20,000 bases of DNA from IMG/VR virus record IMGVR_UViG_3300009001_000010, positions 53,280-73,279 of that record. One strand, written 5' to 3'. Under the pieces are notes generated by a model. It worked only from the letters and a program-made list of their open reading frames with translations, did no database searches and was not told the origin of the DNA. Position 1 is the stretch's first letter. Each line of letters begins with the position of its first letter. Origin of the DNA: an uncultured virus (IMG/VR IMGVR_UViG_3300009001_000010). Lineage: Duplodnaviria; Heunggongvirae; Uroviricota; Caudoviricetes. Shown piece after piece: positions 467-12,832 of this stretch. Position numbers and translations under genes: made by a program.

Positions 467-680
467 TTAAATGTTTAATAACCTTATTTAAAGTACGGAT
501 AGAATTAATAAAAAAATCATCATCAAAAGTTATTTGAAAATCATCTTCTACAATTAATGAATAATAATTACACTCTTCGCAAATTCCAAATGGAGAATTA
601 AAATCAATTGTTTTATATTCTTCATCAGTAAGTTGTCTCGAAAAAGCACATTCATCAAAAGAAAGACAAATTATTTTCAT
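459..680 (-). CDS. Small hypothetical protein with a CxxC motif
   Basis: 73-aa ORF overlapping both neighbours; contains CEEC. Confidence 0.6.
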   Translation of the reverse strand: MKIICLSFDECAFSRQLTDEEYKTIDFNSPFGICEECNYYSLIVEDDFQITFDDDFFINSIRTLNKVIKHLNE

Positions 681-1386
681 CTAAATAACTTTCATGTTTT
701 TGATTAGTAAGTTGATCAATTATAGCTAACCACGAATTTAAGGAATCTTCCATCGTAACATCATTGTCGTAATAATCTTTACACAACTTTAAATTTTTAA
801 TTTCTTCATCATGAAGTAAATTTTCATTAATATACTTTTTAACATAATCTAATATTTCAATAGATTTTAAAGATAAAGAAAATTCATACCTAGTTAAATA
901 CTTTTGAACTCTAGAAAGTATTTGAGTAATTTTAGAAGCAATTTCTTGTTTGCTTTTTAAACCTTCAAGTTGAAAAGAACGAATATCTAATTCATCTTTA
1001 GACCAAGATTTAAAAGTATCTAATGAAGTATAGATATTATTATTGTGTATAGCTACTGAAGCATTAACGAAATCATGCTTATAAATTAATTCTTCAGGAC
1101 TAATAAAATATTTTTTAATTAATTGACAATTTAAATTTAAAAAAGTATCAGCATTATCAGTAGATATAGGAGTTTCTATTTTAGATAATAGTGTAAAAGC
1201 TTTTTTATAATTCTCTTCAGATGCAAAATAAAAATCAATATCATGATATTCGCTAGAAGGAGAATAAACTAAATTAATCGCAAAAGAACCAGAAAGTATT
1301 GGTTCGCAATCAATTAAACCTGGAGCAATGGAATTTAACTTTTGTATGTATTTCGATATGACCTTATGATGATAAGGTATAATCAT
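655..1386 (-). CDS. Pol-beta superfamily nucleotidyltransferase (CCA-adding/poly(A) polymerase head-like)
   Basis: ILSGSFA...YHDIDFYF matches hG[GS]x9-13DhD. HDFVNASVAI resembles class II NTase motif B (RRDFTINAhA). The ATG at 1386, just after the stop of the Lon-like gene, is preferred over the track start at 1413. Confidence 0.7.
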   Translation of the reverse strand: MIIPYHHKVISKYIQKLNSIAPGLIDCEPILSGSFAINLVYSPSSEYHDIDFYFASEENYKKAFTLLSKIETPISTDNADTFLNLNCQLIKKYFISPEELIYKHDFVNASVAIHNNNIYTSLDTFKSWSKDELDIRSFQLEGLKSKQEIASKITQILSRVQKYLTRYEFSLSLKSIEILDYVKKYINENLLHDEEIKNLKLCKDYYDNDVTMEDSLNSWLAIIDQLTNQKHESYLDENNLSFF

Positions 1387-1390
1387 ATTA

Positions 1391-3013
1391 TTAAGTGTCG
1401 AAATTTGTAACAAAGCCTATCCTTTTCTTAGAAATAGAAATATTTTTATTAAATTTTAAATGAGTTTTTAATTTTATTTCATTTTTATAAGAAGAAGTTA
1501 AAATTTCTTTAGCTTTATTTCTTAAAAGTTTTTCTAGATGTTTTTTCATATCTCTTAAATTATAAGTTTTAGCAAAAAAATCTATAAGTTCTTGCTCTAA
1601 AATTAAATCATAAGAGTTCATATTGTATTTAGACAAAGCAGATTTAAATAAAAATTTAGTTAAAATAACTGTTTTTTCTTCAGTAGTATAATCTACAAAA
1701 TTAATTTGAAGCATACGATCTAAAAGAGGCGCAGGTATATTAGATTTAAAATTAGATGTACAAATAAATATGCATTTAGATAAATCTATAGGTATTTCTA
1801 AAAAACGATCAATAAATTTATCATTTTGTTCAGTATCTAAAAGTTCTAAAAGTGCTGCAAAAGGATCACCTTTATCTTTTGAAATTTTATCTATTTCATC
1901 TAAAAGTATAACAGGGTTTAAACTTTTAAGAGTAGACAAGCCTTGCACTATTCTACCTGGTTTAGAACCTACATAAGTACGTCTATGGCCACGTATTTCT
2001 GATTCATCTGAAATCCCACCTAAAGATATATGTAAAAAATCTCTATCTGTAGATTCGGCTATTTGTTTTGCAATAGATGTTTTACCAGTGCCCGGCGGAC
2101 CATCAAAAAGAAAAACTGCCCCATCTAAAGATTTTGTGAGCTCGTAAAGATAAAAGTATTCTAAAATAGATTCTTTGACATCATCTAAACCATAATGTTT
2201 TTGGTTTAAATCTTTTTCTATTTGAAGTGTTTCTTTGTTAGATTGACGTAAAGTAGACCAAGGCAAATTATCTAACAAATCAATATAATCTAATGTAGTT
2301 GAATATTCCGCAGAAGCGGTATTTATTTTTTCAAGACGAGTTCTTTCTTTAACATATTTTTCTTGAACATATTCTGGCCAAGATAAAAATCCAGATTCTT
2401 CAGAATCAATTACATCATTTTCGATAGATGAATGATCGTAAAGTAATAAAGTATCAAGTATGGCTTGGTAAATTAAAGTTCTTTTTTTAACTTGGCTTTC
2501 GGCTAAAAAGAATTCTAAATCATATGATAAAGCAGGAGTAAGATAAGCAAATATTTGATCATAAAGTGACGTATCTTCTATTTCCATCAAAGGAACATTA
2601 GCGCGAAGATAATTAAAAGCGTCATGAACATTTAAAAAAGTTAATATTAAATTAAGTTCTTTAGTTTTTTTGATTTTTTTAAAATCAATAACATCAAATG
2701 TAACTAAATCATTAGAACATTCTTTTACATTAGTTACTTTATTTAAAGAATGAAAAACAATATTTATTTCTTTTTTGCTTTCTACCAATTCTATCAAACT
2801 GCAAAGTACAGAAAAATTTAAATATTTTTCCTTTGAAGTTATCCTTAAAATAAAAACATCTTTATAAGTATTGGATTTATATTGATACTCGTCTGCTGTC
2901 AAAAAAATAAATTGCTTAGGCAATTTTCTTTTATCAAGATTAATTACATAATCATTTGCAGGATGAGGAATAATATATTCTTCAGATATTTCAAAATAAG
3001 GTAAGCTGGACAT
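1391..3013 (-). CDS. Lon-like AAA+ ATPase lacking the C-terminal protease domain
   Basis: Lon-type motifs LDNLPW, HYGLDDVKESILEY, Walker A GPPGTGKTS, LGGISDESEIRGHRRTYVGSKPGRI, Walker B LLDEIDK, GDPFAALLELLD, PLLDRM. Ends at 540 aa with KRIGF and has no PKDGPSAG protease motif. Confidence 0.85.
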   Translation of the reverse strand: MSSLPYFEISEEYIIPHPANDYVINLDKRKLPKQFIFLTADEYQYKSNTYKDVFILRITSKEKYLNFSVLCSLIELVESKKEINIVFHSLNKVTNVKECSNDLVTFDVIDFKKIKKTKELNLILTFLNVHDAFNYLRANVPLMEIEDTSLYDQIFAYLTPALSYDLEFFLAESQVKKRTLIYQAILDTLLLYDHSSIENDVIDSEESGFLSWPEYVQEKYVKERTRLEKINTASAEYSTTLDYIDLLDNLPWSTLRQSNKETLQIEKDLNQKHYGLDDVKESILEYFYLYELTKSLDGAVFLFDGPPGTGKTSIAKQIAESTDRDFLHISLGGISDESEIRGHRRTYVGSKPGRIVQGLSTLKSLNPVILLDEIDKISKDKGDPFAALLELLDTEQNDKFIDRFLEIPIDLSKCIFICTSNFKSNIPAPLLDRMLQINFVDYTTEEKTVILTKFLFKSALSKYNMNSYDLILEQELIDFFAKTYNLRDMKKHLEKLLRNKAKEILTSSYKNEIKLKTHLKFNKNISISKKRIGFVTNFDT

Positions 3014-3019
3014 AATAAT

Positions 3020-3061
3020 CCCTTAACACGATTATAAAAAAACTATAATCAATGCTAAGGG
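3020..3061 (-). promoter_or_regulatory. Hairpin in the 5' leader of the Lon-like gene that covers its Shine-Dalgarno and contains a TATAAT
   Basis: Minus-strand CCCTTAGCA-T-TGATTATAG / TTTTT / TTATAATCG-TGTTAAGGG forms about 18 bp including G-U pairs. The 3' arm carries AAGGG, ending 6 nt before the ATG at 3013. Confidence 0.55.
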
Positions 3062-3071
3062 AAAATCAAAA

Positions 3072-11151: not shown

Positions 11152-11682
11152 TCAAGGAGGAGAATTAAAATAATTGCTAACATGATTCATTAATATTCCC
11201 GAAGCAGTACCAACATTTAAACTGCGTACGCTTCCGTATTGAGGAATATAAATACAAGCAGAACAAAGTTTTAGTACTTCAGGTAAAATCCCTGAAGACT
11301 CTTCTCCAAAAATATAAATATCTTCAGGTTGGGGGGTAAAGGAGTTTAAAGAGACAGTATTAGAAATATTATTTTCAACCCCAATCAAACGATACTTTCT
11401 TGACAATTCTATAATTTCAGAATAATCAGAAAGGTGTGTTAATTGTTTATAATTATGACTTCCTACAGACCCTCTTCTGTCCCAACGTTTCTTTCCGTAA
11501 TAATAAATTTCTTCAACACCAAAAGCATTTCCGTTTCTAATAAATGTAGAAATGTTAAAATCACCATTAATGTGTTGCATCATAATTTTATAAGGAAAAG
11601 CTTTTCTAGCAAGATCTTCTTTAATTAAAGCTGTTTCCATAACTTTATAACTATCCATTACATTCATCGTAAATACTTTCAA
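11152..11682 (-). CDS. SpoU/TrmH-family (SPOUT) RNA 2'-O-methyltransferase
   Basis: Motif 1 FNISTFIRNGNAFG, motif 2 IFGEESSGI, motif 3 IPQYGSVRSLNVGTASGI. The true start may be the ATG at 11667. Confidence 0.9.
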   Translation of the reverse strand: MKVFTMNVMDSYKVMETALIKEDLARKAFPYKIMMQHINGDFNISTFIRNGNAFGVEEIYYYGKKRWDRRGSVGSHNYKQLTHLSDYSEIIELSRKYRLIGVENNISNTVSLNSFTPQPEDIYIFGEESSGILPEVLKLCSACIYIPQYGSVRSLNVGTASGILMNHVSNYFNSPP

Positions 11683-11694
11683 AATAATAAATTA

Positions 11695-11765
11695 AGGATT
11701 TGATAGGATTCAAACCTATATCTAAGTGTTACAAACACTTGCTTTATCAATTAAGCTACAAATCC
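11695..11765 (-). tRNA. Atypical tRNA, best read as tRNA-Thr(UGU); no encoded CCA
   Basis: GGATTTG-TA-GCTT-AATTGATA-AAGC-AAGTG-TTTGTAA-CACTT-AGAT-ATAGG-TTTGAAT-CCTAT-CAAATCC-T. All four stems are fully Watson-Crick paired. It lacks nucleotide 26 and has A19/U56 instead of G19/C56. Confidence 0.75.
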
Positions 11766-11770
11766 AAAAT

Positions 11771-11863
11771 GCCCCTACACGATAAAAAAGTTAAGTGGTT
11801 TAAGCTCTCTTTTGTTTATCGACATATGATGCGCCTTTCATTATAAATGCAAAGGGTAGGGGC
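11771..11863 (-). ncRNA. Putative 93-nt structured RNA (three-way junction) of unknown class
   Basis: Terminal 8-bp helix GCCCCTAC/GTAGGGGC. P2 CCTTT-g-CATT/AATG-AAAGG. P3 CGATAA-ac-AAAAG/CTTTT-TTATCG with an 18-nt loop. Sits between two tRNA-like elements; strand inferred from context. Confidence 0.55.
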
Positions 11864-11865
11864 TA

Positions 11866-11915
11866 AGCGTTATTTAGGAATCGAACCTAAAAAAACTACC
11901 GTCAAGTTATAACGC
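11866..11915 (-). ncRNA. 50-nt tRNA-like element lacking the anticodon arm
   Basis: GCGTTAT-AACT-TGACGGT-AGTT-TTT-TTAGG-TTCGATT-CCTAA-ATAACGC-T. Perfect 7-bp acceptor stem, D-like arm with GG, canonical T arm, and only TTT where the anticodon and variable arms should be. Confidence 0.65.
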
Positions 11916-11917
11916 GA

Positions 11918-12214
11918 TTAATGAGTATAATCAGAATAAGAATCAAAAGAAGATAAAGTAACTTTTGGATCTGTTAAAAATTTTTCTCTAGCTTCAGGAG
12001 TAAGCTCTGGAAAAATTCTTTGAATATAAATGTCTTGATTACAATAAGTATGCAAGCGACTGCAAAGTAAATCGTAATCCATATTAATTTCAAAAGACCA
12101 AGAGCCAAGAAAATTAGAAATAACTTTTACTTCGCAAAGATTATTAGAAATTGTTTTAACAGTATAAGTTTTATTTACAAATTTATTTGGTGCTTTAAAT
12201 ACAAAAGTAGACAT
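11918..12214 (-). CDS. Hypothetical phage protein
   Basis: 98-aa ORF. IQRIFPELTPEAREKFLT resembles a motif I recall from uncharacterised phage proteins; no family assigned. Confidence 0.6.
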   Translation of the reverse strand: MSTFVFKAPNKFVNKTYTVKTISNNLCEVKVISNFLGSWSFEINMDYDLLCSRLHTYCNQDIYIQRIFPELTPEAREKFLTDPKVTLSSFDSYSDYTH

Positions 12215-12215
12215 A

Positions 12216-12455
12216 TTAATCTTTCTTGATAAGGTTTACATAAAAGCGAGTATAATATTTTTCTTCACAAGTCAAATGATCTAAAGAATTGGTTTTTTGT
12301 AAAACTTTATATTCATATTCAGACAAAGGTTTTAATGTTTTTGTTTTGCTAAAACATTCATAATATAAATATTTATTATGTTTATAATCATAAAAATTAA
12401 AAACTAATAAAAAAATTACAAATATTGAAAAACAAAATAAAAATATTTTTTCCAT
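12216..12455 (-). CDS. Small protein with an N-terminal TM or signal segment
   Basis: IFLFCFSIFVIFLLVFNFY at the N-terminus. Confidence 0.6.
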   Translation of the reverse strand: MEKIFLFCFSIFVIFLLVFNFYDYKHNKYLYYECFSKTKTLKPLSEYEYKVLQKTNSLDHLTCEEKYYTRFYVNLIKKD

Positions 12456-12457
12456 AA

Positions 12458-12832
12458 TTAATTTAAATAAGTGCAGTTTAAGTTGGACATAGAATCATAC
12501 CAATAAACTCTCTTAACACCTTTCCTAGTTAAAAGTTTAGTACACCCTTTACAAGGAGCGCCAGAACTTAATGTTCCATCAGGCCGTATTCTAATTGCAA
12601 GTACATTAGCGCCATGGATTTGATCTTGGCGTAAACCTGCTAAAGCATCTTTTTCACTGTGTATAGAACATTTTCTTCCGTCTTTATTAGAAGTAGTTTT
12701 AGCATAATTGTAACCAGCACCAAGAACAGTTTTATTTTTCCATATAACTGCTCCATGCCTATGCAACATTTGAGATTTTGATGCTTGCTGGATTGCTAAG
12801 GGAAGAAATTTTTCTATTATTTTATTAGCCAA
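12458..12832 (-). CDS. Zn-dependent cytidine/deoxycytidylate deaminase-fold protein
   Basis: HRHGAVI...GAGYN, HSE (HxE) and PCKGC Zn motifs, GVKRVYW. Confidence 0.8.
   Translation of the reverse strand: MANKIIEKFLPLAIQQASKSQMLHRHGAVIWKNKTVLGAGYNYAKTTSNKDGRKCSIHSEKDALAGLRQDQIHGANVLAIRIRPDGTLSSGAPCKGCTKLLTRKGVKRVYWYDSMSNLNCTYLN

Follow-up and report, generated by a model that had tools for sequence, protein, structure and literature searches.

The window analyzed here, a stretch of 20,000 nucleotides, makes up the final 20 kb of a virus record of 73,279 bases (G000) that is about 45% complete. A 154,760-base metagenome contig (L011) carries an identical stretch, with 12,372 of 12,372 bases matching and no variation. 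Genes for an amidase, a lytic transglycosylase, an SSB and deaminases in G000 mark the source as a large bacteriophage, and nearly all long open reading frames of the window lie on the minus strand. Table 1 shows the features of the locus, which follow each other on the minus strand in the order ORF98, mini-tRNA, 93-nt RNA, tRNA-Thr(UGU) and trmH. The 93-nt element begins 2 nt past the discriminator of the mini-tRNA and stops 5 nt short of tRNA-Thr, and the mini-tRNA, the 93-nt RNA and the tRNA form a compact three-part cassette of about 220 nt. The locus is a phage tRNA cluster, with syntenic clusters in relatives, and the element itself is not a tRNA. The preliminary description of this DNA had given the helices and lengths of the element correctly and had left out the mini-tRNA and tRNA-Thr that flank it.

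Table 1. Features of the locus and of related RNAs (positions are those of the window unless a locus is named)
Feature	Position	Strand	Basis or remark
93-nt closed-stem RNA with a three-way core junction, which becomes four-way with the linker hairpin	11771..11863	-	Folding; candidate homologue L106:9550-9626 in G001
P1, 8 bp (11863-11856 with 11778-11771)	5′ strand 11856..11863; 3′ strand 11771..11778	-	Pair probabilities 0.98-1.0
P2 arm, 9 bp, one bulge, stacked on P1 without linker	11834..11855	-	Pair probabilities 0.93-0.98, last pair 0.65
12-nt linker, may form a 4-bp hairpin	11822..11833	-	Hairpin probability 0.62-0.82
P3 arm, 11 bp, 2-nt bulge; A-rich 5′ strand, U-rich 3′ strand	11780..11821	-	Folding, pair probabilities
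P3 loop, 18 nt	11791-11808	-	Folding
1-nt junction strand ahead of the P1 3′ strand	11779	-	Folding
5-nt trailer AUUUU, also the 5′ leader of tRNA-Thr	11766..11770	-	Same 5 letters between G001 element and tRNA-Met
50-nt mini-tRNA: 7-bp acceptor stem, 18-nt connector, canonical T arm, discriminator U; without anticodon arm, without CCA	11866..11915	-	Alignment, second example
tRNA-Thr(UGU)	11695..11765	-	Rfam 59.6 bits, ARAGORN; CCA not encoded (3′ end inspected)
SpoU/TrmH-family RNA methyltransferase gene, downstream	11152..11682	-	PF00588, E 9.7e-23
98-aa ORF, stop 2 nt ahead of mini-tRNA	11918..12214	-	ORF list
Family B	L006:7204-7295, L013:2001-2088, L017:1322-1409, L021:931-1018, L096:563-649, L095, L014, L018		8 matches, 6 of them training sequences

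The 98-aa ORF had no Pfam or PHROG match and no homologue among the relatives' loci compared. No promoter of its own was found for the 93-nt element, no minus-strand open frame spans it, and it is single-copy. In G002/L006, trmH also comes after the tRNA cluster.

We analyzed the fold of the 93-nt element by its pair probabilities. P1, P2, the 12-nt linker, P3 and the 18-nt loop had all been proposed before, and all were present on the minus strand as written. The first six pairs of P3 had probabilities of 0.74 to 0.92 and the distal pairs 0.36 to 0.58. In the MFE structure, three extra pairs (p ~0.5) close the P3 loop, and the linker folds as its 4-bp hairpin, so that the junction of this structure is four-way. 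The GC-rich 8-bp P1 is the solid part of the model; the inner arms are well predicted, and energy alone cannot prove them.

The element had an MFE of -24.0 kcal/mol and a z-score of -3.33, with 1 of 200 shuffles folding as well; a second shuffler gave a z-score of -2.54 (400 shuffles). The plus strand folded about equally well (z -2.74). Among GC-matched 93-nt windows of the genome, 37 of 473 folded at least as well, and z ≤ -3.3 was reached by 16 of the 643 windows of the 20-kb stretch (20 shuffles each). The energy of the element is modest and not exceptional for this genome. Shuffling the interior around a fixed P1 gave folds as good as that of the element in 109 of 500 and in 87 of 400 cases. 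The whole element folded better than shuffled controls, but its interior did not once P1 was fixed. This second test has little power, because three true tRNAs, at 16 to 29 of 400, did little better in it, and the same held for three sequences from a spacer family that is conserved and covarying (61 to 359 of 400). Perfect 8-bp repeats with at least six GC pairs and the span of P1 occur only twice in 73,279 bases, the second time in a GC-rich repeat gene. A chance origin of P1 is unlikely, since the repeat is rare and fits exactly between a tRNA-like element and a tRNA.

A search of the window against Rfam 15 at E ≤ 10 gave five matches. Only tRNA-Thr passed its gathering score, in keeping with the statement that the element fits no tRNA, riboswitch or ribozyme consensus; the matches touching the element scored 15.6 bits against a cutoff of 40 and 11.5 bits against a cutoff of 70. 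The latter, RAGATH-36 (RF03104), was rejected: the weak match covers the T-loop hairpin and the ten letters that connect the mini-tRNA and P1, and the same search gave matches in 5 of 14 control genomes. A tRNA identity (RF00005) of the element was also rejected, with no Rfam or ARAGORN match and no T loop. Nor did tRNA ancestry hold, as the best score against 127 clade tRNAs was equalled by 17 of 100 shuffles in sense and by 84 of 100 in antisense orientation.

Theta ribozymes of gut phages are structured RNAs just 3′ of a tRNA and, in the account given in PMC10879173, are proposed to trim phage tRNAs. The element is like them in that a phage tRNA or tRNA-like RNA lies a few bases upstream, and its start 2 nt past the mini-tRNA is the theta position as described there. 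One reading is a ribozyme whose self-cleavage would trim the mini-tRNA at its 3′ end. However, the fold is nested and closed by P1, with no nested double pseudoknot and no catalytic-C junction of the theta/HDV type. A pseudoknot check of loop-loop complementarity gave 4 and 2 pairs at best, with no such pairing kept, and the element contained none of the ribozyme core motifs checked and had no Rfam ribozyme match. We regard self-cleavage as highly improbable.

The closest of the four records compared was phage G001, which matches 66 of the 89 G000 ORFs at a mean identity of 60% (62 of 89 at 56% for G002). In its second tRNA cluster, a three-way junction of 77 nt (L106:9550-9626; z -3.21) takes up the 84-nt spacer between tRNA-Arg and tRNA-Met, starting 2 to 3 nt after tRNA-Arg. 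In a gapless comparison anchored at the P1/P2 junction, 9 of 12 pairs were identical to those of the window element, 3 were compensated and none was broken; P1 had five of seven pairs identical and two compensated, and the first five pairs of P2 had four identical and one compensated. In both elements P2 stacks on P1 and is followed by a C, a single-nucleotide strand precedes P1′, and the trailer ahead of the next tRNA reads AUUUU. P3 of the G001 element is also A-rich and U-rich, but its loop is 10 nt of other sequence, and its linker of 4 to 5 nt shares just the first C with the 12-nt linker of the window element. Depending on the background assumed, the 9/12 identity has a p value of 0.0004 to 0.015 before correction for the approximately 10 spacer elements examined. 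The genes flanking the element differ between G000 and G001.

The covariance model R2 was built from the window element alone, before the G001 element was seen. R2 aligned end to end to L106:9550-9626, at the limits of the spacer, with 13.9 bits, an E value of 0.56 and rank 4 of 11 in 87,764 bases. In a 214-base test, the G001 candidate reached an E value of 0.0014, and the antisense of the window element scored higher, at 15.8 bits. The reciprocal model R3, built from the G001 element, landed on positions 11773-11861 of the window with 12.3 bits, an E value of 1.4 and rank 7 of 17, and its alignment likewise ran end to end at the spacer limits. Filtered covariance-model searches missed the match in both directions, and among the spacers of 25 other tRNA-rich loci (95,039 bases) R2 scored none at E ≤ 3. 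A structural descriptor, written after both elements had been seen and thus post hoc, had six matches in 1,255,581 bases, the window and G001 elements among them. The other four were set aside (an antisense tRNA, one in a GC-rich contig and two away from tRNAs). The null for this descriptor was 0 of 20,000 shuffles of the G001 spacer and 0.3 matches per shuffled G001. Since the scores of the two models are weak, we consider homology of the window element and L106:9550-9626 likely rather than proven. On this comparison, the common features of the two are their junction, helix layout and 3′ trailer, not the loop or the linker.

This result bears on the suggestion in the preliminary description that the loop and linker are exposed segments for pairing with a target, as neither is kept in the G001 candidate. 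An antisense small RNA acting via the 18-nt loop or the 12-nt linker would be in accord with a long and exposed loop, the complement of which loosely resembles a tRNA D loop by eye. That likeness, however, was not above shuffles, and the longest complementarity within the G000 sequence was 10 nt for the loop and 9 nt for the linker. We consider such an antisense role very improbable.

The setting of the G001 element also bears on a terminator, riboswitch or leader controlling trmH, which would explain why the stem is followed by four U residues and why an RNA-methyltransferase gene lies 88 nt downstream. The G001 element precedes tRNA-Met and tRNA-Leu with no trmH near, and in the window tRNA-Thr intervenes. 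A search for an intrinsic terminator (a short GC hairpin with a 3- to 8-nt loop and a U run) was negative, with 0 sites in 11400-12500, and we find control of trmH barely credible.

It was also considered that the element is a decayed remnant without function, either a tRNA pseudogene or an inverted-repeat scar, and that its likeness to the G001 element is partly chance. The covariance-model scores for G001 are not significant, the flanking tRNA-Thr and mini-tRNA are reduced or atypical, and the energy lies only within the top 8% of the genome, all of which a remnant would allow. On the other hand, the element has no tRNA ancestry on either strand and no T loop, it is single-copy, and three pairs are compensated and none is broken relative to G001. 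A remnant is quite unlikely in our judgment.

We searched for further relatives with protein leads and with patterns of the element itself. The upstream deaminase as a lead gave 6 viral loci and 80 of 86 metagenome loci, most of them with tRNA clusters nearby; TrmH alone gave 0 loci, an RNase H-like lead 1, a TrmH alignment 3, and GTDB 0. In related phages, a tmRNA gene lies near the same deaminase (L007:5376-5741, L024:6818-7177 and L026:2833-3190). No homologue of the 93-nt element was found in G002-G009 or in the other relatives' loci beyond G001. Exact-pattern scans for the element had 0 matches in the viral set and 0 in GTDB genomes, and another such scan had four matches, none of which was scored by the covariance model of the element. 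Comparison with 50,697 phage records by blastn gave tRNA and short chance matches only, and the same short chance type was obtained for the G001 candidate. Pairwise local alignment of the element to seven other spacer elements, a set that did not include the G001 Arg/Met element, gave none above shuffles (best 33/300). Among sequencing runs, no RNA data set was listed as carrying the sequence, and four runs that carry part of it had no reads over the element, which has no weight either way. Literature searches on RNAs of this type in phage tRNA clusters brought up no account of it. GOLLD and ROOL, as described in PMC5737381, are comparable in being structured RNAs that are often near tRNAs and occur in phages, but they are large and highly conserved, and the element has no Rfam match. 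The 93-nt element is probably the first-seen member of a small uncatalogued family of phage RNAs.

Neither ARAGORN nor Rfam detected the mini-tRNA upstream of the element. Its relation to tRNAs is seen by alignment, with a score of 34, the highest score among 100 shuffles being 29. A descriptor run on all relatives' loci compared found one more mini-tRNA, L049:1091-1140 (+). Between the two, all 7 acceptor pairs and 1 of the 5 T-stem pairs show compensated double changes, and no pair is broken; the connectors have the same length of 18 nt and 10 of 18 letters in common. The L049 mini-tRNA is followed directly by a closed-stem RNA (L049:1142-1204; z -3.85) and then by a tRNA, so the trio recurs. 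This closed-stem RNA resembles the window element by eye, but neither R2 nor R3 matches it. Between tRNA-Arg and the L049 mini-tRNA lie approximately 220 nt of more hairpins (L049:867-1090) with no Rfam match. A pattern scan for the mini-tRNA had two matches, of which one lies within coding sequence and the other in a GC-rich contig that is unrelated. A glycine identity, suggested by the first three pairs and by U73, does not hold for L049 and was rejected.

The mini-tRNA has the form of a t-element, namely, an acceptor stem and a T arm without an anticodon arm, with compensatory change in the two examples. An encoded CCA is absent from 21 of the 21 tRNA genes listed for six clade loci. Alongside t-elements, mascRNA is another RNA to which the mini-tRNA can be likened. 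The t-elements of plant mitochondria are described in PMC1920247 as signals for RNase Z/P. The likeness to them lies in the acceptor stem and T arm of the mini-tRNA and in an adjoining RNA whose end it could define; the differences are the phage setting, in which the enzymes are presumed to be those of the bacterial host, and the 93-nt element itself, which has no T arm.

Structured RNAs of other kinds occupy tRNA slots in the clade. Family B, represented by model R1, is an 87- to 92-nt three-way junction with an invariant core and with double changes at 10 of 27 pairs (0 of 500 shuffles). It lies just 3′ of tRNA-Arg or tRNA-Asn in L006, L013, L014, L017, L018 and L021, filling the Arg/Met slot in L013 and L021, and in L095 and L096 it lies away from tRNAs, after a gene end. 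The L096 member had no Rfam match near the cutoff. Family B is better supported than the 93-nt element. The element does not belong to it: none of the 26 unfiltered R1 matches at E ≤ 10 was on the element, R1 scored 2.9 bits on the window element and 2.8 bits on the G001 candidate, and a family-B-like fold of the window element costs 5.6 kcal/mol more. A three-hairpin RNA between tRNA-Tyr and tRNA-Gly (L006:8568-8659, z -6.6; L013:3493-3583) keeps its structure with the sequence largely replaced. In G001, two long G-U-rich hairpins (L002:9464-9663; z -4.65 and -2.63) lie between tRNA-Gly and tRNA-Asn. As varied folds fill such slots in the relatives, folded inserts of 65 to 105 nt between tRNAs recur in the clade. 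The comparison has also yielded two further uncatalogued RNAs with conserved structure. The tRNA-Asn/tRNA-Ile spacers of many distant relatives (L029-L067) are conserved and 70 to 124 nt long, with a promoter-like hexamer pair around a hairpin and a conserved motif before tRNA-Ile(UAU). The tRNA at L006:6716-6790 is degenerate; its anticodon loop has 8 bases, and it apparently descends from tRNA-Asn.

We propose that the 93-nt element is a small phage RNA that the tRNA-maturation enzymes of the host free by tRNA punctuation and that a protein binds at its junction, akin to T4 RNAC and RNAD, a reading to which we give even chances. The cluster would be transcribed as one unit on the minus strand, from ORF98 to trmH, as the layout suggests. 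The CCA-less mini-tRNA would act as a t-element, and its 3′ processing would free the 5′ end of the 93-nt RNA. An RNase P cut at the 5′ end of tRNA-Thr would free the 3′ end, leaving the AUUUU tail on the RNA. According to the outline in PMC10879173, 5′ ends are made by RNase P and 3′ ends by multi-step trimming. We infer the release steps from the geometry of the locus and known tRNA processing, and release by this route is probable. The GC-rich P1 would then clamp both ends and protect the product as an acceptor stem does. The earlier proposal of a stable small RNA is compatible with the paired ends and the predicted tRNA-punctuated slot; pairing through the loop or linker, which was part of it, is not supported.

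If the RNA is released, a function in trans is a good prospect. Because the G001 relative keeps the junction letters and helix layout and not the loops, the RNA most likely acts as a protein-binding shape, which is the least certain step of the model. P1 and P2 would form a coaxial stack. The partner may be a phage protein, or a host RNA-binding or defence protein that is being titrated, as presumed for T4 RNAC and RNAD. These are small RNAs from the phage tRNA region with roles given as unknown in the passages on them in PMC3014915 and PMC9697503. The window element is like them in being a small non-tRNA RNA in such a region; the difference is that expression is shown for T4, and the window element is predicted from sequence. 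No likeness in sequence to T4 RNAC or RNAD was found, as the blastn matches to T4-like phages cover the tRNA-Thr part only and none is on the element.

Alternatively, the element may be a structured spacer acting in cis, which separates the tRNA domains or times their processing and is then degraded. That the loops are not conserved, that unrelated folds sit in the equivalent slot of relatives and that P1 holds most of the folding signal would all be expected of a spacer. But in these clusters just 1 to 5 nt, without an insert, separate many of the tRNAs from their neighbours, so no insert is required. The junction letters shared with G001 also exceed the needs of an insulator, and an upstream mini-tRNA makes sense if the element is a product. 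We consider a role in cis rather unlikely.

A broader extension of the released-RNA model is that the clade uses its tRNA operon as a cassette from which a varying repertoire of small junction RNAs is expressed. Mini-tRNAs retained for this purpose and true tRNAs would serve as cutting handles, and the slots, with exchangeable unrelated folds (the window element, family B, the three-hairpin family and the long hairpins), would supply protein decoys against host defences that sense RNA or attack tRNAs. In this scheme, which is speculative and which we think unlikely as a whole, the 93-nt RNA would found one such family.

Elsewhere in the window, the strongest hairpin (approximately 3013-3070, minus strand; z approximately -8.5) lies just upstream of the start of a Lon-like ATPase gene. 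A 252-aa protein (655-1413, minus strand) has a nucleotidyltransferase-like motif by eye and no Pfam match; its Atlas look-alikes are viral, one cluster having Gad2 (PF26128) on 49% of its members. Outside the window, at G000:C1 48733-51512, adjacent ORFs resemble, by eye, a gene set with ubiquitin-like, E1-like and JAB-like members.
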